From positions 148,487 through 212,486 of the forward strand of contig JBAZMW010000002.1 in assembly GCA_041649575.1 (NCBI GenBank): a stretch of 64,000 nucleotides of DNA. Reading direction: 5' to 3'. How positions within the stretch are numbered: position 1 is the stretch's first letter; each line of letters begins with the position of its first letter. Both the position numbers and the translations under genes were made by a program. Below are positions 2,257 to 39,984 of this stretch, piece after piece. This DNA comes from Patescibacteria group bacterium (lineage in GTDB: Bacteria > Patescibacteriota > Patescibacteriia > 2-01-FULL-39-33). The notes beneath the pieces are model-generated. The model was not told the DNA's origin. It worked only from the letters and a program-made list of their open reading frames with translations, and did no database searches.

Positions 2257-3804
2257 ATGGGAATTGAACTTAATTTTGATTTGGCTTCAGTTTGGGAAAG
2301 TTTCGTAATTTTTGCTTCCCAGGATCCAATTACCATTGGCATTCAACTGTTTCTTAAAGGTGGTTGGGTGATTTTTTTAATTGTAATACTGACTGTTTTT
2401 TACGATGCGTGGCTAGATGCCCGCCAAGGCCAGTATGCCGGCAAGTGGCAGCATGTTCTCTTGGCTATCGATATTCCCAAAAACAATGAACAAACACCTA
2501 AGGCGGTAGAAAATCTTTTTGTCGCTTTGGCCGGTACGCAATCCAGCGGCAATTTGATTGATCGTTATTGGCATGGCAAAATACAAGAAAGTTTTTCCTT
2601 CGAAATCGTCAGTCTCGAAGGCTATATCCAATTTTTGGTGCGCACTCCCGTTCATTTCAGGGATCTGGTGGAGGCCGCTGTTTATGCCCAGTATCCGGAA
2701 GCGGAAATCACCGAAGTCGAGGATTACGCCAAGGATTATGCCGGATTGCGTTTTCCCAATGAGCAATATAATTTGTGGGGCACCGAATTGGTTCTGACCA
2801 AGGATTACCCCTATCCCATCAAAACTTATATTGATTTTGAACACACTTTGACCGGCAATTTTTTGGATCCCATGGCGGGGTTATTGGAGATTTTGAGCCG
2901 CTTCGGTCCCGGCGAGCAGCTCTGGCTGCAGCTGGTGGTGACGCCGTGGAAGCCGGACTGGGGCGAAAAAGCCAAAAAAGCCATCAAGACTCTTAAAGGA
3001 GAAAATTATGCTCCGCCGACCACCATAGCCGACAGGATAGCCAAACCAATCGAGTGGTTGGGCACTCAGGCCTTAAATGTCGCTAATGAATTTGCCGGCG
3101 GCGGGGGAGAGGGAGCCAGCAAAAAAGAGGAAGATCAGTGGAAAATGTTCAAACTTACTCCTGGAGAAAGACTGGTTTTTGAAAAAATTCAGCATAAATT
3201 GTCCAAAATTCCTTTCCGGGTGAAATTTCGCATGATTTATTTGGCCAAAAAAGATGTTTTTGCCAAAGGCCGGGGCGTAGCGGCTGTGATTGGCAATATT
3301 CAGCAGTTTAATGTCTCCGACGCCAATGGCTTCAAACCCGGCCCGAAAACCAAGACGGCGGTCGATTATTTTCGCGTTAAGAAAAGATTGGCGGAAAGGC
3401 AAAAAAGGATTTTGCGTCGTTTTATTGGCCGCAGTAATTTTTATGGCGAACCGGTCAGTAATATGTTTTTGAGTACCGAGGAATTAGCCACCCTTTGGCA
3501 TTTCCCGGTGATGACCGTTAAGGCGCCCAGGCTGGAAATGATTGGCTCCAGGCGAGCCGTTCCGCCCACTCGTTTGCCCTACAAAAGTCGTGGTTTTACC
3601 GTTGAAAAAGAGAGAGTTAGAACTTTGGCGGAAAGAGACGGCAGGATTGAAGAAAAAATTGAAGGTTCACTGGAATCTCATCCCCGGTCGCCAAAGTTAC
3701 CAGCGGTAGCGCCGCTGGTTCGGCCGGCCAATTTAACGGACAAATCGACCGAACCGCCGCCGCGAAGAAATCCCGAACCGCCGGCCAACTTACCCACTGT
3801 TTAA
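2257..3804 (+). CDS. Membrane-anchored hypothetical protein, partner of the downstream ATPase; Pro/Arg-rich tail
   Basis: AGGAAGGTGA SD upstream and one N-terminal TM helix (GWVIFLIVILTVF). I recognise no motif. Stop is 12 nt before the next gene. Confidence 0.7.
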   Translation: MGIELNFDLASVWESFVIFASQDPITIGIQLFLKGGWVIFLIVILTVFYDAWLDARQGQYAGKWQHVLLAIDIPKNNEQTPKAVENLFVALAGTQSSGNLIDRYWHGKIQESFSFEIVSLEGYIQFLVRTPVHFRDLVEAAVYAQYPEAEITEVEDYAKDYAGLRFPNEQYNLWGTELVLTKDYPYPIKTYIDFEHTLTGNFLDPMAGLLEILSRFGPGEQLWLQLVVTPWKPDWGEKAKKAIKTLKGENYAPPTTIADRIAKPIEWLGTQALNVANEFAGGGGEGASKKEEDQWKMFKLTPGERLVFEKIQHKLSKIPFRVKFRMIYLAKKDVFAKGRGVAAVIGNIQQFNVSDANGFKPGPKTKTAVDYFRVKKRLAERQKRILRRFIGRSNFYGEPVSNMFLSTEELATLWHFPVMTVKAPRLEMIGSRRAVPPTRLPYKSRGFTVEKERVRTLAERDGRIEEKIEGSLESHPRSPKLPAVAPLVRPANLTDKSTEPPPRRNPEPPANLPTV

Positions 3805-3816
3805 ATTTTCTAAAAA

Positions 3817-5418
3817 ATGACAGAAGAAAGCGTCGAACAAAAAAAAGAAATAACCATTTTTGCCGAAACCAATTTCCGCAACCAGCGGCGCAGTTTTGGT
3901 ATTAAGCGCGATGATCGCCGGCGCCATATGTATATTATCGGTAAGACCGGCATGGGCAAAACCACGCTTTTGGAAAACATGATTATTTCCGATATCATCA
4001 ACGGCGAAGGTTGTTGCTATATTGATCCTCATGGCGATACCGCCGAAAAAATTCTAAATTATATTCCTTCCCACCGGGTTAACGACGTGGTCTATTTCAA
4101 CCCGTCCGATACGGATTTTCCCATCGCTTTCAATATTCTGGAGGCGGTTGACGAAAAAAGCAAGCACTTGATCGCTTCCGGCTTGGTCGGAGTTTTCAAG
4201 AAGCAATTCGCCGACAGCTGGGGCCCGCGTTTGGAATATATTTTAAGAAATGCTATTTTAGCTCTTTTGGATTATCCCGGTAGTACGCTTTTGGGTATCA
4301 TGAGGATTTTGGTTGACGCCGATTATCGCGACAAGGTGATTGAGAAAGTCACTGATCCGGTGGTCAGGTCTTTTTGGACCAATGAATACACCAAATGGAA
4401 CGACCGGGTTTTGCAAGAGGTCATTTCGCCGATTCAAAACAAAGTGGGCCAATTTTTATCTAATTTTTTAATTCGCAACATCGTCGGTCAGGTCAAATCG
4501 ACCATTGATATGCGCGAGATCATCGACAACAAAAAAATAATGATAATGAACTTGTCCAAGGGCCGTATCGGCGAAGACACCATGCAGCTTTTGGGATCGA
4601 TGATTGTCACTAAATTGTATTTAGCGGCCATGAGCCGCGTTGATGTTCCCGAGCAGCAGCGCCAAGATTTTTATCTTTACGTTGATGAGTTCCAAAATTT
4701 TGCTACCGACAGTTTTGCCGATATTTTGTCAGAAGCCAGAAAATATCGCCTGAACCTGGTTATTGCCCACCAGTACATCGAGCAACTGCCGGAGCTGGTG
4801 ACTGCCGCGGTTTTTGGCAACGTGGGCACGCTGATCAGTTTCCGGGTGGGCGCTTCCGATGCCGAGAGCTTGGTGCGGGAATTCACTCCTACCTTTACTG
4901 AAGAAGACCTGGTTAACCTGCCTTCTTTTAATGTCTATCTGAAATTAATGATTGACGGCATTTCTTCCGATCCGTTCTCCGCCACCACTTTACCACCACT
5001 TTTCGACGAAATGATCACCGACAGCAGTGAAAAGGTCATTAAAGTTTCTCGCGAACGTTATGCCCATGGTCGTAAGGTAATAGAAGACAAAATTAACCGC
5101 TGGAGTGGCATTGATCTAAGTGAAAAGTTGGCCGAAGCCACCGTGGGCAAGGGAGTGCCGGTTGTCATTTCCGCTTCCGGCGACGGCGCGAAGAAGAAGA
5201 AAAAAAAGAAGAAAAAGAGCCAGGCCACCGCTGGCAATAATTTTTCCGTGGCCTGCGCTTCCTGCGGCACGCCGGTCAAGCTGAACTTTCAGCCCGATGG
5301 CAAGCGCCCGATTTTTTGCGAGAATTGCCTTAATCAAATGGCCAAAGAAGAAGTCAAGTCCGACGAGGACGATGGCTACCAGAGTTTGGAAGATTTAAAA
5401 AAGATTCTGGGCCGATAA
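3817..5418 (+). CDS. TraD/TraG/VirD4-like (type IV coupling-protein-like) P-loop ATPase with a C-terminal zinc ribbon
   Basis: Walker A GKTGMGKT and Walker B-like YLYVDEFQNF. Lys9 run encoded at about 5190-5217. C-terminal CASCG..x17..FCENC zinc ribbon. Confidence 0.75.
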   Translation: MTEESVEQKKEITIFAETNFRNQRRSFGIKRDDRRRHMYIIGKTGMGKTTLLENMIISDIINGEGCCYIDPHGDTAEKILNYIPSHRVNDVVYFNPSDTDFPIAFNILEAVDEKSKHLIASGLVGVFKKQFADSWGPRLEYILRNAILALLDYPGSTLLGIMRILVDADYRDKVIEKVTDPVVRSFWTNEYTKWNDRVLQEVISPIQNKVGQFLSNFLIRNIVGQVKSTIDMREIIDNKKIMIMNLSKGRIGEDTMQLLGSMIVTKLYLAAMSRVDVPEQQRQDFYLYVDEFQNFATDSFADILSEARKYRLNLVIAHQYIEQLPELVTAAVFGNVGTLISFRVGASDAESLVREFTPTFTEEDLVNLPSFNVYLKLMIDGISSDPFSATTLPPLFDEMITDSSEKVIKVSRERYAHGRKVIEDKINRWSGIDLSEKLAEATVGKGVPVVISASGDGAKKKKKKKKKSQATAGNNFSVACASCGTPVKLNFQPDGKRPIFCENCLNQMAKEEVKSDEDDGYQSLEDLKKILGR

Positions 5419-12018: not shown

Positions 12019-12174
12019 TGCGAGCGCATGAAAATTTAGCAACAAAACAGGCGGAGTTCGAGCGTAAATTTTAATTTGTTTGAGCAAAAGCCACCAGTAA
12101 ACTGGTGGCTTTTGCGAGTTATTAAAATTAGCGAGAACAACCCTGTTTTGTCTAAATTTTCATTTAGCTCGCGC
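12019..12174. repeat. Long imperfect palindrome, copy L1 (~156 nt, MITE-like or structured RNA)
   Basis: Arms GCGAGCGCATGAAAATTTAGCAACAAAACAGG... and ...CCTGTTTTGTCTAAATTTTCATTTAGCTCGCGC, centred on CCACCAGTAAACTGGTGG (12091-12108). Confidence 0.75.
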
Positions 12175-12185
12175 TTTTTTCTTTT

Positions 12186-12226
12186 GTGTCAGCTTTTCTT
12201 TTTACTAAAAAAAGAAAAGCTGACAC
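12186..12226. repeat. A/T-rich perfect hairpin H1 (GTGTCAGCTTTTCTTTTT...AAAAAGAAAAGCTGACAC)
   Basis: Perfect inverted repeat. Related left arms occur at 22159 and 24649. Confidence 0.7.
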
Positions 12227-12252
12227 AAAAAAAGAGTATATTTAATAAACTA

Positions 12253-24649: not shown

Positions 24650-24690
24650 GTTGTCACTTTTCTTTTTTTAGTAAAAAGAAAAGCTGACGC
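24649..24690. repeat. A/T-rich hairpin H3, same family as 12186-12226
   Basis: GTTGTCACTTTTCTTTTTTTAGTAAAAAGAAAAGCTGACGC. Confidence 0.65.
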
Positions 24691-24701
24691 AAAAGAAAAA
24701 A

Positions 24702-24842
24702 GCGCGATCTAATGAAAATTTGGCGCTTTAAGTCAAAATCCTAACAAAATTTTTAAACTCGCTTCGCCTACGGCTCGCTCAAACAGTAAAAATTTAGTAA
24801 CGGATTTTGCCTTACGCTTATTCCAAATTTTCATAGGCTCGC
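24702..24842. repeat. Long imperfect palindrome, copy L3
   Basis: GCGCGATCTAATGAAAATTTGG... pairs with ...CCAAATTTTCATAGGCTCGC. Confidence 0.7.
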
Positions 24843-36928: not shown

Positions 36929-38418
36929 AAGCGCTCCAGCGCTTGCCTGATTCTTAGTAAACTTTTTTCTGGTCCCAAAATTTCCGCCACCTCAAACGGC
37001 GTTGGCGATTTTTCCATTCCCGTCAGCGCCACTCTCATCGGCCACAGCACTTCGCCGTTGGTCAGATTGTTTTTAGTGATAAAAGTTTTTAATTTATTTT
37101 CCAATACTCCCCTTTCCCAGTCGCTGGCAGAATATTTTTCCAACTCCTGCAAAGTTAATTGCAAATTTTTTTTAGCCGCTTCCGCGCTAGATTTTTTCCA
37201 GACCAGCAAGCTCGGGTTATAACTTAGCTCAGCGGTAAAGAAAAAATTTATCCTCCCCCCTACTTCGTTCAAGCGGCTAACCCTTTCTTGTTCTAGTTTT
37301 AGTATTTTTTCCAAATCCAAATCAGTTGGCATTTGACCGACATTCTTTTCCAAATACGGCTTGGCTAGTTGGGCAAATTTAGTATTGGTCAGTTTCTTAA
37401 GGTATTCGCCATTGAGCCAGTCTAGTTTGGCTAGATCAAAAATGGCTCCGGCCTTGTGCACCTTGGCCAGAGAAAAAGCCTGAATAAGTTCTGGCAGGAG
37501 AAAAATTTCTTGTTCAGTGCCCGGATTCCAACCCAAAAGCGCCACAAAATTTAGGAGCGCTTCCGGCAAATAGCCTTTGTCGCGGTAATCCTCCACCGCC
37601 ACGTCGCCTTGTCGTTTGGACAGTTTGCTGCGGTCGGCGTTTAAGATCAGAGGCAAATGGGCAAACAGCGGCGGCGTCCAGCCCAAAAATTTGTACAACA
37701 ATAAATGCTTTGGCGTCGAAGACAGCCACTCTTCGCCGCGAATGACATGGGAGATTTTCATCAGATGGTCGTCAACCACCGAAGCCAAGTGATAAGTCGG
37801 AAAGCCATCGGCTTTCAAGATCACTTGGTCGTCTATTTCCCGGCTACGAAATTTTATTTCGCCGCGAATCAAATCATTAAAAACCACTTCTTGATTTTCC
37901 GGCACCTTCATTCTGATGGTGTATTTTTCGCCGGCCGCCAACTTATTTTGCACTTCATCTGGCAACAGATGGCGGCAATGCCAATCATATCTGGTTGGCT
38001 GTTTGGCGGCCTCTTGCTGTCGGCGTAAATTTTCTAACCTTTCCTCACTGCAGAAGCAATAATAGGCCAAACCCTTATTTACTAGCTCGGAGGCGTATTT
38101 CTGATAGATTTCGAGCCTTTTAGACTGCGTGTAGGGCCCAAAATGGCCTTTTTCAACGGCTTTTCCGGCTTTATCGAGTATTACGCCCTCGTCGGGTTTT
38201 AGGCTCGCCCAAGCCAAATTTTTGAGCAAATTTTCTACCGCCCCCGGCACTTCCCTGGTTTGGTCGGTATCTTCGATTCTCAGCACAAAAGACCCTTTAT
38301 TTTGTTTGGCAAAAATATAGGCATAGAGCGCGGTGCGTAGTCCCCCGACATGCAAATAGCCAGTCGGACTCGGCGCAAAGCGGGTGCGGACCTTTAATTT
38401 GTTTAGAAAAGAAAACAT
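36910..38418 (-). CDS. gltX: Glutamate--tRNA ligase
   Basis: RFAPSPTGYLHVGGLRTALY (HIGH motif) and KLSKRQGD (KMSKS motif). Confidence 0.93.
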   Translation of the reverse strand: MFSFLNKLKVRTRFAPSPTGYLHVGGLRTALYAYIFAKQNKGSFVLRIEDTDQTREVPGAVENLLKNLAWASLKPDEGVILDKAGKAVEKGHFGPYTQSKRLEIYQKYASELVNKGLAYYCFCSEERLENLRRQQEAAKQPTRYDWHCRHLLPDEVQNKLAAGEKYTIRMKVPENQEVVFNDLIRGEIKFRSREIDDQVILKADGFPTYHLASVVDDHLMKISHVIRGEEWLSSTPKHLLLYKFLGWTPPLFAHLPLILNADRSKLSKRQGDVAVEDYRDKGYLPEALLNFVALLGWNPGTEQEIFLLPELIQAFSLAKVHKAGAIFDLAKLDWLNGEYLKKLTNTKFAQLAKPYLEKNVGQMPTDLDLEKILKLEQERVSRLNEVGGRINFFFTAELSYNPSLLVWKKSSAEAAKKNLQLTLQELEKYSASDWERGVLENKLKTFITKNNLTNGEVLWPMRVALTGMEKSPTPFEVAEILGPEKSLLRIRQALERLKTEKA

Positions 38419-38421
38419 AAA

Positions 38422-39291
38422 TTATTTTTTCTTTACCACCAGCCACCCAAATTTAATGGTGGCATTATAAATCCTACTTAACCGGCGCGGTTCTTGGATT
38501 AGCCGATATAGCCATTCTAACCCCAATCGCCTCAAAAATAAAGGCGCGCGTCTCACCTGTCCCGACAAAAAATCAAAAGTCCCGCCGACGCCAATCGCCA
38601 CTTTAATTTTTGGCACTTTGGCTAAGTTGTCTCTGATCCACTTCTCCTGCCTCACTTGCGGCAAGGCCACCAACAGAATATTGGCTTCGCTGGCATTAAT
38701 TTTTTCCAGCACCTGATTGTTGTTTTCAAATTGCCAACATTTGTTTTCTATGGGATCCCCACGGCCGGCTTCGCCGGCCTCGGGATGACATTGTAGAAGC
38801 GGCCCGCCTTGGTCAAAGCCAGCCACTTTGCCAATATATTTTTCTGCCACTTGTTTTGCCGCTCCTTCTTTTCCGCCCAGTAAATAAATTTTATAAATGT
38901 CATTGCGAGGGAGCGCGAGCGACCGTCCGCCTAGGCTCGGCGAGACTGGTGGCAATCCCGTGGGATCACCGCGTTGCCCGGTCATTTGACCGGGCTCCTC
39001 GGGATGACAACTTAGAAGTGCCTCTATTAGATCCACGCCCGTCACTCTCTCTAATTTTTCTTGTTTTAAAAATTTAGCCGCCCAAACCAGCCCAGCGCCA
39101 TCGCAGGTGGCCAAATCAGCATTATTTAAAATATTTCTGAAAACTTCGTCTTTTTGCGCCGCCACCACAAATTCCGGATTAATCGTCACCACCTGCCTTT
39201 GGCCTTCCGCTGTCAGCCATTTTTTAATTAACTTCAAGGCTTCTGGCAAATTGACCTGATCGATTTTTATTCCCAGTATTTCTATTTTCAT
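38422..39291 (-). CDS. WecB/TagA/CpsF-family glycosyltransferase carrying three in-frame repeat insertions
   Basis: VTINPEFVVAAQKD and DLATCDGAGLVWAAKF. 289 aa, versus about 240-250 aa that I recall as typical for the family. Confidence 0.85.
   Translation of the reverse strand: MKIEILGIKIDQVNLPEALKLIKKWLTAEGQRQVVTINPEFVVAAQKDEVFRNILNNADLATCDGAGLVWAAKFLKQEKLERVTGVDLIEALLSCHPEEPGQMTGQRGDPTGLPPVSPSLGGRSLALPRNDIYKIYLLGGKEGAAKQVAEKYIGKVAGFDQGGPLLQCHPEAGEAGRGDPIENKCWQFENNNQVLEKINASEANILLVALPQVRQEKWIRDNLAKVPKIKVAIGVGGTFDFLSGQVRRAPLFLRRLGLEWLYRLIQEPRRLSRIYNATIKFGWLVVKKK
38751..38799 (-). repeat. GC-rich CHPE-type element, copy a, in frame in the wecG-like gene
   Basis: Sense strand reads CTTCTACAATGTCATCCCGAGGCCGGCGAAGCCGGCCGTGGGGATCCCA and encodes LLQCHPEAGEAGRGDP. 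Confidence 0.7.
38898..38958 (-). repeat. Second copy of the ~60-nt pheT element, in frame in the wecG-like gene
   Basis: The reverse complement matches 25978-26037 except for a 1-nt indel plus a substitution near the 3' end. Encodes GLPPVSPSLGGRSLALPRND. Confidence 0.85.
38961..39017 (-). repeat. GC-rich CHPE-type element, copy b
   Basis: Sense strand reads CTTCTAAGTTGTCATCCCGAGGAGCCCGGTCAAATGACCGGGCAACGCGGTGATCCCA. Termini match copy a; the central hairpin has a different sequence. Confidence 0.7.
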
Positions 39292-39294
39292 AAG

Positions 39295-39984
39295 CTACTT
39301 TTTTAGATAATTCACGATGATTTTGGCCTGGCTCTGGTTTTCTTTGTCGTCCTTAAAAGACATCAGGCCAAAAATGTCGCCTTTCCAAAAGCCCAAATTA
39401 ATTTCATAATCTGCCAGATTTTCCTTAAACTCAAAGCCGCTTTCCTTCAGCTTGTTTTTGTAGTAGCCGGCCACCTCTTCTTTCGGCTGGCTTATCTGTT
39501 TCCAGGACAAAGAGGTTGTTTCCATTTTTTTCAGTTCCGGCGAGCTTAGGGCTTTTTTTAATTCCTCCGGCGTAAAACCGCGCGACAAGTCTATTTTATC
39601 GGCAAAACTTTGGCTTAATTTAGCTTTCAAATCATTGGATAAATAAGCCAAAGTCGGCTTAAGCAGCCAGTTTGGTAAAAGGCCCATGATTTTCAAAAGT
39701 TTTTCCTTGCCTTCTGGCGTCTGCAGTTCAATCTCGGCTTTTTCCGGCAGATAAATGGCCAGTTCTTCCGGGAAATCACCCGGCAACTGGTTGACTTTTT
39801 CCACCACCGGAGAGACCGCCAATCTGACAGCGGCAAAAAGAGTAATGAAGATAATTACCAACGCCAAAATTAAACAACCGAAAAATTTGATAAATTCTCG
39901 GCTTCTATTTTTTTCCGGATTGTTCAGGTTGAGTTCCTGCCAATTTTTCATTATTTCCTGGCTAATTTTATTATATTCTAGCAA
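39295..39984 (-). CDS. Membrane-anchored hypothetical protein
   Basis: One TM helix (FGCLILALVIIFITLFAAV). No recognised domain. Confidence 0.65.
   Translation of the reverse strand: MLEYNKISQEIMKNWQELNLNNPEKNRSREFIKFFGCLILALVIIFITLFAAVRLAVSPVVEKVNQLPGDFPEELAIYLPEKAEIELQTPEGKEKLLKIMGLLPNWLLKPTLAYLSNDLKAKLSQSFADKIDLSRGFTPEELKKALSSPELKKMETTSLSWKQISQPKEEVAGYYKNKLKESGFEFKENLADYEINLGFWKGDIFGLMSFKDDKENQSQAKIIVNYLKK

Follow-up and report, generated by a model that had tools for sequence, protein, structure and literature searches.

How can one gene hold two copies of a short palindromic sequence whose hairpin structure is kept while the sequence that forms it differs? The question is raised by a gene for a WecG/TagA/CpsF-family glycosyltransferase (wecG) in a 64-kb stretch of Patescibacteria DNA, hereafter called the window, which carries short GC-rich inserts within its reading frame. 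We consider it quite probable that these inserts represent copies of a palindromic repeat with a TGTC tag, one belonging to the CGTC-tagged superfamily of repetitive extragenic palindromes (REPs), and that the hairpins are sites of small GIY-YIG nucleases of the Ssn family, which act on single-stranded DNA (ssDNA).

Two inserts lie in loops of the WecG protein

The exact WecG protein is on record from a single Patescibacteria metagenome-assembled genome (MAG), on a 235-kb contig (ENA ERZ27247363 k141_2894300). It measures 289 aa, as against 234-261 aa for its nearest relatives, with which it shares about 50% identity. Upon alignment of the query with 23 homologues of this length range (alignment A1), residues 95-132 and 168-180 stood opposite gaps, the latter in 22 of the 23, which bears out the claim of an earlier sequence-only reading of the locus that wecG contains in-frame inserts absent from its family. 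The family-invariant residues T36, N38, D64, R82, Q215 and E216 are all present despite the inserts. An AlphaFold2 model built on the 23-homologue alignment had a mean pLDDT of 87, and its best PDB matches were TagA/TarA (TM 0.85 on target length); confidence fell at the inserts, with pLDDT below 50 at residues 97-109 and 112-128 and a mean of about 59 at residues ~171-180. In this model, both inserts sit in loops of an otherwise confident TagA-like fold and are predicted to be disordered. The gaps in 23 relatives and the low-confidence loops together indicate that the inserts are real and lineage-specific, and the model suggests that the copies add floppy loops to WecG without breaking the protein. 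An empty site at the DNA level could not be shown, the closest homologue in the databases searched being only about 50% identical.

WecG homologues of other Patescibacteria (P0018, P0020, P0028 and P0095) hold unrelated extra peptides at the same two loops, among them VETLHSTSLQNAEK and SPPFQGGVRGG. These peptides resemble other repeat-derived inserts, and the two WecG loops seem to be general landing sites.

The inserts are units of a single plan

On the sense strand of wecG, the shorter insert (copy a) reads TGTCATCCCGAGG-CCGGCGAAGCCGGCCGT-GGGGATCCC, and one part of the longer insert (copy b) reads TGTCATCCCGAGG-AGCCCGGTCAAATGACCGGGCAACGC-GGTGATCCC; both are translated in the same frame, giving CHPE...RGDP. 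Their central hairpins, GGCCGGC/GCCGGCC and GCCCGGTCA/TGACCGGGC, were found exactly as first described, and the view that structure is kept while sequence differs holds: the termini are conserved, and the central stems differ and still pair. The sequence CTTCTA, formerly taken for a shared terminus, had to be given up as such; it belongs to the flanking gene and at copy b encodes two leucines (LL) conserved in the homologues, the true boundaries being TGTC...CCC. As ssDNA, copy a is predicted to fold at -13.4 kcal/mol (z = -3.9) and copy b with z = -2.6; the outer stem of copy b contains one C.T mismatch, its tail being GGTGAT.

The longer insert joins copy b to a unit that the sequence-only reading had called "pheT-type", with a 2-nt spacer between the two halves. 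Its terminal inverted repeats are TGTCAT..CGAGG and CCTCG..ATGACA, and as a single strand it is predicted to form a cruciform (-31 kcal/mol, z = -4.3). The head of the second unit is TGTCAT-TG-CGAGG and its tail GG-CA-ATCCC. A common plan underlies all these sequences, in the order TGTC, AT-NN-C, GAGG...centre...GTGG, G-N'N'-AT and CCC, with tag and tail unpaired. The 5-bp outer stem is formed by AT-NN-C with G-N'N'-AT, and the internal-loop bases CGAGG ... GTGG are conserved; inside the outer helix come an internal loop and then an inner hairpin whose length varies, such that units measure 29-62 nt and their centres 9-60 nt. There are two subtypes, in which NN is either CC (partner GG) or TG (partner CA). 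What had been described as different elements, "CHPE-type" and "pheT-type", are these two subtypes of one plan, and instead of three elements the gene contains one singlet and one doublet, the CC+TG doublet recurring as a fixed arrangement in many MAGs.

Covariance model R1, run with filters off, recovered five units in the window, three in wecG, two in pheT and none between genes (Table 1). The head GTCATNNCGAG likewise has five occurrences in the window, where 0.19 would be expected; none of the shuffles had as many. An Rfam scan of positions 38300-39400 at E <= 1 gave no match.

Table 1. Position of wecG and of the repeat units within the window, with the peptides that they encode and their R1 scores.
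Feature	Position	Strand	Length	Encoded residues	Remarks
WecG/TagA/CpsF-family glycosyltransferase gene (wecG)	38422..39291	-	289 aa		insert host; Pfam PF03808 (Glyco_tran_WecG), E = 1.3e-45
CC-type singlet (copy a)	38752..38790	-	39 nt	aa 168-180, CHPEAGEAGRGDP	R1 37.6 bits, E = 1e-9
Inverted doublet	38898..39009	-	112 nt	aa 95-132, CHPEEPGQMTGQRGDPTGLPPVSPSLGGRSLALPRNDI	TGTC tags outward
CC-type unit of doublet (copy b)	38962..39009	-	48 nt		R1 29.7 bits, E = 4e-7
TG-type unit of doublet ("pheT-type element")	38898..38959	+	62 nt		read antisense by wecG; R1 32.1 bits
TG-type unit inside pheT	25977..26037	-		aa 196-216, KGLPPVSPSLGGRSRRSLAMT	R1 27.4 bits
Short unit inside pheT	26916..26944	+	29 nt	aa 509-519	TGTCAT-TC-CGAGCGAAGTCGAG-AA-ATCCC; R1 23.2 bits, E = 5e-5, filters off

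The likeness of the TG-type unit of wecG to pheT, which had been pointed out before, was confirmed: it is 94% identical over 49 nt to the TG-type unit of pheT, from which it differs by a 1-nt indel and two substitutions, and the similarity extends into ..TGGGCTC. The two units have a private 22-nt core that was found in none of 144 other loci, and they also share remains of a CC-unit tail alongside, of which about 9 nt adjoin the pheT unit. Because core and tail remains are common to both, one must have given rise to the other, or a single source to both, within the lineage; the sequences thus point to past copying of TG-type units within this lineage or genome. The region of pheT that contains the unit aligns poorly or with gaps to solved PheT chains.

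A third GC-rich palindromic in-frame stretch lies in pheT (25390-27858) at 26741-26795 (ACCCTGTTAAATCCCGCTCTAAGCGGGACGGCTCTGCCGTACTTAACGGGGTA, encoding aa 451-469, YPVKSRSKRDGSAVLNGVK). It is gapped relative to solved PheT chains as well, and on the minus strand the sequence CGTC-CCGC-TTAGA-GCGG-GAT may represent a degenerate CGTC unit; it received no R1 score.

Compensatory changes maintain the stems

The sequence-only reading had proposed to look for compensatory changes in the stems. We counted base pairs over ten pairs in two alignments, a gap-free set of 16 distinct 44-nt units that was not fitted to the model, and a set of 126 distinct units (from 150 model hits). The unfitted set had 94.4% of cells paired, with five of the ten pairs changed on both sides; the larger set, whose fitting to the model favours structure, had 95.7% of cells paired, eight of the ten pairs changed on both sides and 166 compensatory cells. 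In neither case did any of 500 shuffles score as high, and sliding the 3' partner columns of the 126-unit alignment reduced pairing to 19-66%. The outer-stem pairs switch jointly between the CC and TG types, from C-G/C-G to U-A/G-C. Each of the five window units, and every aligned unit, has TGTC ahead of its stem; the first stem pair is A-U in 124 of the 126 distinct units and the second is U-A in all 126. The tail is CCC in the model consensus and CCCA in both CC-type copies of wecG.

Besides the two versions in the window, the inner stems include GTTG/CAAC, TCTG/CAGA, GCTG/CAGC, TCCGCC/GGCGGA, CCCCGC/GCGGGG and GCCGCC/GGCGGC, while short units contain only GCGNAGC, which we take to be a GNA-type DNA mini-hairpin. 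Some stems hold unrepaired mismatches. Compared with mononucleotide shuffles, the central regions gave a weak folding signal on average (mean z about -0.6 to -0.8); the mini-hairpin of the short units is not credited by the energy model. Pair counts are a better test here than the folding energy of the central region.

Units, doublets and in-frame copies recur in other genomes

The CC-type unit was searched for with the pattern TGTCATCCCGAGG-N(10-40)-GGKGATCCC in a collection holding one genome per species, to which the genome of the window does not belong. The exact pattern occurred at 62 loci, mostly in three Patescibacteria MAGs (~11, 13 and 6 copies) and several Gammaproteobacteria MAGs, with others from Acidobacteriota and Thermoanaerobaculia; viral contigs gave no match. 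The expectation of further copies was therefore borne out in other genomes, but within the window the only copies outside wecG are those in pheT. Related MAGs have at least 11-13 exact-pattern copies each; the 64 kb of the window contain five units. Over the window and the 62 loci (517 kb), model R1 identified 152 units.

About 20 CC-type copies are directly followed by GC GGGATTGCCA..., the start of a TG-type unit, and the succession seen in wecG, copy b and then GGGATTGCC... (the TG-type unit reversed), is a fixed doublet in many Patescibacteria and Gammaproteobacteria MAGs. Extraction with TGTCAT..CGAG...CTCG..ATGACA yielded 44 distinct doublets of 76-196 nt, that of the window included, all with their tags outward; they are heterotypic (CC + TG) in Patescibacteria and Gammaproteobacteria and homotypic in Acidobacteriota. 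These data establish the lineage-specific inserts, the unit plan with its covariation across many copies, and the recurring fixed doublet.

Copies in frame are frequent for this family of repeats. AT-rich MAGs have units inside long open reading frames (ORFs), whose products, named by reading the translations, resemble PolA (L004), Dus (L033), Tgt (L036), MnmA (L039), a TruB-Sua5 fusion (L042), a U32 peptidase (L048), LeuRS (L055), UvrB (L057) and two glycosyltransferases (L020, L021). Every frame, sense or antisense, is in use, with frame and strand varying by gene, and doublets as a rule have two to three open frames of six. Most copies in these MAGs are nevertheless intergenic. The 5' flanks of 84 distinct units from AT-rich genomes (L002-L063 and the window) showed a weak preference: at positions -8 to -4, T makes up ~50% and G is almost missing, and at -3 and -2 A accounts for 54-57%. 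The three wecG units follow this pattern. This bias may reflect a site preference. It falls in the region where the Neisseria nuclease SsnA, described below, cuts.

Tandem arrays of units with a repeated spacer ...CGCAATGACAGCGGTGGCAAACGGGATTGCCACG... were seen at L044 (~4000-4320) and at L051 (~4750-4975, contig CAYLUK010000028.1); they resemble clusters reported for Neisseria and Wolbachia. At L053 (3541-4818), a QueA-looking ORF contains several different repeat-derived in-frame peptides (SPPFSKGEIKRG..., LLCHPDRARGEWRDP...GLGRNDN), and proteins of these MAGs seem to carry peptides from several repeat families.

A small GIY-YIG gene lies between inverted units

Clustering of the ORFs across all loci revealed no transposase-like family, but it did reveal a small ORF shared by three unrelated MAGs (L003, L012 and L060), which in each case encodes a GIY-YIG domain (PF01541, E ~1e-13). 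At L003, the 99-aa ORF lies between units at 4842-4889 (+) and 5223-5266 (-); at L012, an ORF of about 99 aa lies between inverted units at 3426-3464 and 3800-3843; and at L060, the ORF starts about 60 nt 3' of a unit. The three proteins are matched by no NCBIfam model, and a PDB sequence search returned only the uncharacterised UPF0213 protein 1ZG2 (E = 0.002). The right-hand unit at L003 (5223-5266) combines a CC-type head, TGTCATCCCGAG, with a TG-type tail, GGCAATCCC, such that its outer stem cannot pair fully; it would seem to have arisen by recombination of the two subtypes.

A scan of metagenome contigs yielded 80 relatives of these GIY-YIG proteins at 46-61% identity, many of which have R1 units directly upstream (forward) and downstream (reverse). 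With a strict hairpin test (GTC, a perfect 6-bp stem and its complement, within 160 nt), a (C/T)GTC-tagged hairpin was found no more than 160 nt from 51 of 75 usable GIY-YIG genes, and on both sides of 32, compared with 4.1% of control windows. These hairpins mostly have the canonical sequence CGTCATTCCCGCGAAGGCGGGAATCCA of the Neisseria NTS repeat, and some have long self-complementary loop expansions, as do the units of the window. Hence, unit types identical to those in wecG flank GIY-YIG genes in two related Patescibacteria MAGs (L003 and L012), and relatives of those genes are flanked by canonical NTS.

Comparison with known repeats

CGTC-tagged REPs were described in five phyla, mostly in alpha-Proteobacteria, and include dRS3 of Neisseria (Di Nocera, De Gregorio and Rocco 2013; PMC3733652). 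Their tag is CGTC, often TGTC, with CCTC allowed; the stem starts with A-T followed by T-A, and an unpaired tail resembles CCA. The four families reported have 8-9-bp stems and 4-5-nt loops, and dimers are frequent, as inverted homo- or heterodimers with spacers that are either 1-2 nt or longer and conserved. Intragenic copies, often in repair and translation genes, are most numerous in R. conorii, where they equal the Rickettsia palindromic elements (RPEs) RPE-4 and RPE-6, and singles and dimers sometimes occur in one ORF. Neither a dedicated transposase nor a neighbouring tyrosine transposase was found for these repeats (PMC3733652). Our units resemble them in the TGTC tag, the A-T/T-A stem start, the CCC(A) tail, the inverted dimers and the in-frame intragenic copies; their hosts are Patescibacteria, several Gammaproteobacteria MAGs and Acidobacteriota.

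The enzyme associated with such hairpins in Neisseria is SsnA, a 94-aa GIY-YIG protein that binds as ssDNA the NTS repeat CGTCATTCCCGCGMAVGCGGGAATCYRG, which contains dRS3, and cuts a few nt upstream of it (Chenal et al. 2025; PMC11893778). Cleavage is governed by the three bases before the palindrome and binding by the C after it, while the loop may be changed, removed or extended; the layout NTS-ssnA-NTS was described as resembling an insertion sequence (IS). L003 and L012 show the corresponding arrangement, in which tagged hairpins in inverted orientation enclose a small GIY-YIG gene of a single domain. The parts conserved in our units (tag, stem and first C of the tail) are those that SsnA needs, and the part that varies corresponds to the loop that SsnA ignores. 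The published work focuses on repeats that cluster around genes and are associated with ssnA, rather than on intragenic copies that stay in frame. The wecG units agree with the description of CGTC-tagged REPs and Ssn sites in their tag, the start of their stem, their tail, their habit of forming dimers and their association with an enzyme, and depart from it in size and internal build. The kind of repeat is already known; a unit type with in-frame copies in housekeeping genes of Patescibacteria is an added member.

RPEs (Ogata et al. 2000, reviewed in PMC10969869) lie in frame in unrelated housekeeping genes of Rickettsia and are tolerated as extra loops. The parallel extends to in-frame insertion in unrelated genes, absence from orthologues and compatibility with the fold, which we showed for wecG. 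RPE-1, however, measures about 150 bp and encodes a conserved peptide (PMC10969869), whereas units of 29-62 nt and doublets of 76-196 nt in several frames and on either strand encode no common peptide. The link to RPE-4 and RPE-6 follows from their equation with CGTC families in PMC3733652. A likeness in manner of working exists with REP doublets forming hairpins (REPINs) and their REP-associated tyrosine transposases (RAYTs), and with the bacterial interspersed mosaic elements (BIMEs) of E. coli: in each there are hairpins with a tag, doublets in inverted orientation and spacers that are conserved, and the enzyme gene, present once, has its own repeats on its flanks. Those systems have the tag GTAG and an HUH tyrosine transposase, and REPINs are described as extragenic, whereas the tag here is TGTC and no RAYT was found in the 517 kb. 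QMITE1 and QMITE2 of Coxiella were set aside: they have direct repeats and a length of 150-400 bp, and a GTAG REP forms part of QMITE2. Searches of the open-access literature with motif strings gave chance primer matches only, and nothing relevant was found that links REPINs, RAYTs or in-frame palindromes with Patescibacteria.

Proposed origin of the inserts

We propose, by analogy with the Neisseria enzyme, that recognition by an Ssn nuclease would involve the tag, the outer stem and the tail's first C, and that the loop would be left unread. The centre would then be free to drift or grow provided that it remains self-complementary, so that the outer stem still closes. This would answer the question from which we set out: sequences would differ because the loop is not read, and structure would be kept because self-complementarity is needed for closure of the outer stem. 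An autonomous element would consist of two inverted units around an ssn gene, with doublets as internal-deletion derivatives and singlets as remnants. Doublet spacers of about 30 nt start with GTRG.A and end with TCCAC, like the ends of the L003 and L012 inserts, and we read doublets with such spacers as putative internal deletions of the ssn element. The genome of the window would have, or once have had, its own Ssn, whose cleavage would drive copying; spread by way of ssDNA that Ssn cuts and that is afterwards repaired would explain the missing target-site duplications and the ragged lengths detailed below. In wecG, singlet and doublet would have landed in two length-variable loops of the TagA fold. 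In a compact genome, intergenic copies would soon be lost, while in-frame copies in needed genes would be trapped, only a precise deletion being harmless. Such copies would persist because they are stop-free in the frame used, keep the reading frame, and could not be lost imprecisely without destroying the gene. The inserted peptides would then probably be neutral passengers.

Several points weigh against this proposal. To our knowledge, GIY-YIG nucleases are not known to join DNA, and we know of no transposition shown for Ssn elements. No ssn gene was found in the 64-kb window; its five units all lie in two genes, and activity in this genome may be long past. The 44 doublets had no target-site duplication beyond three chance 2-mers, and their lengths fall in all three classes modulo 3, in-ORF copies included; insertion was therefore not a simple, precise cut-and-paste event. 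In build, a 5-bp outer stem with an internal loop and an inner hairpin, at 29-62 nt, departs from the 8-9-bp stem and 4-5-nt loop of the CGTC families, of which the units here would have to form a further, expanded one. Likewise, the published search pattern for Ssn-related motifs (SRM), HGTCWYN(0-2)YYVSBRHN(0-5)WNVSBRGN(0-2)RNCYNB, matched none of 134 CC/TG heads and none of the four window units tested, whereas the canonical NTS control matched.

The sole match of that pattern in the window lies at 37718-37747 on the minus strand, inside gltX (TGTCATTCGCGGCGAAGAGTGGCTGTCTTC). It shows no hairpin by eye, stands outside the R1 list and is apparently a match by chance, an illustration of how loose the pattern is.

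A stronger version of the proposal is that the inverted units with their ssn gene are a true autonomous mobile element moved via ssDNA by the GIY-YIG nuclease, and that its expanded TGTCAT-CC/TG subtype is active now or was recently so in Patescibacteria, with a weak preference for T-rich...AA sites, remodelling surface loops of essential enzymes. This we regard as doubtful, though possible; we know of no prokaryotic transposon class that uses this type of enzyme.

CGTC-tagged REPs had no enzyme in 2013, and Ssn nucleases were tied to such hairpins in 2025, mainly around genes in Proteobacteria. Because the expanded unit type is invisible to the published search pattern, counts of Ssn-related repeats are probably too low. 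This type is present in MAGs of Patescibacteria, whose genomes are small, where essential genes contain it in frame, in the manner of the RPEs of Rickettsia. In annotating enzymes, one should expect stretches like CHPE...RGDP or ...LPRND, which are to be taken as repeat-derived loops and not as features of the family, and the free inner hairpin provides natural variants with which to probe what an Ssn enzyme reads.

Alternative explanations

The outward appearance of the units is that of classical REPINs, i.e., doublets of GTAG-type REPs mobilised by a RAYT, a tyrosine transposase of the IS200 kind: short imperfect palindromes with a conserved unpaired head, singlets and inverted doublets, short or conserved spacers and no target duplication (PMC3116915). 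That they are such REPINs is very unlikely, given that the tag is TGTC and not GTAG, that a phmmer search of every ORF in the window and the 62 loci with the RayT of E. coli gave nothing below E = 2.9, that the sole gene found between inverted units encodes a GIY-YIG nuclease, and that no tyrosine transposase was found beside CGTC REPs (PMC3733652). We give equally little credence to the doublet being an ordinary MITE (miniature inverted-repeat transposable element), an internally deleted IS whose DDE transposase recognises TG...CA inverted ends. The 13-nt terminal inverted repeats, the start with TG and end with CA, and the size of 76-196 nt would suit a MITE; against it, duplications beyond chance 2-mers were found at none of the 44 doublets, single units with the full conserved plan occur alone, and a transposase-like family is missing from the ORF clusters of all loci.

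A different possibility concerns not the origin of the intragenic copies but their retention, which might be due to a function as Ssn marks against incoming ssDNA in the control of transformation or recombination, as mRNA hairpins, or as useful peptide loops. Transforming DNA is integrated less in N. meningitidis where genes are surrounded by NTS repeats, an effect that goes through SsnA (PMC11893778); all five window units are intragenic and none is intergenic; and the same gene classes (uvrB, polA, tRNA enzymes and aminoacyl-tRNA synthetases) are struck here and in Rickettsia and others (PMC3733652). Yet frames and strands vary between genes such that there is no common peptide, the inserts are modelled as disordered, stem mismatches are left unrepaired as expected of decaying passengers, and the experimental data come from other organisms. 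We therefore think retention for function unlikely. Finally, the segments might be native, conserved parts of a WecG subfamily or an assembly artefact of a repeat-rich MAG, given that the exact protein comes from a single assembly and that, with the nearest homologue at about 50% identity, an empty site at the DNA level is lacking. There is next to no chance of this: both segments are absent from the 23 homologues as described above; they are GC-rich repeats that recur in pheT and, elsewhere, in dozens of genes and spacers unrelated to it; and neither the reading frame nor any invariant residue has been disturbed, a rare outcome for a chimeric join.

A further repeat in the window

Besides the TGTC units, the window contains a 65-nt AT-rich sequence in two inverted copies (12155-12219 and 24657-24721) that are 91% complementary. 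The sequence is itself palindromic (12179-12233); it is a different repeat, unrelated to the TGTC units, and possibly a terminator-like element.

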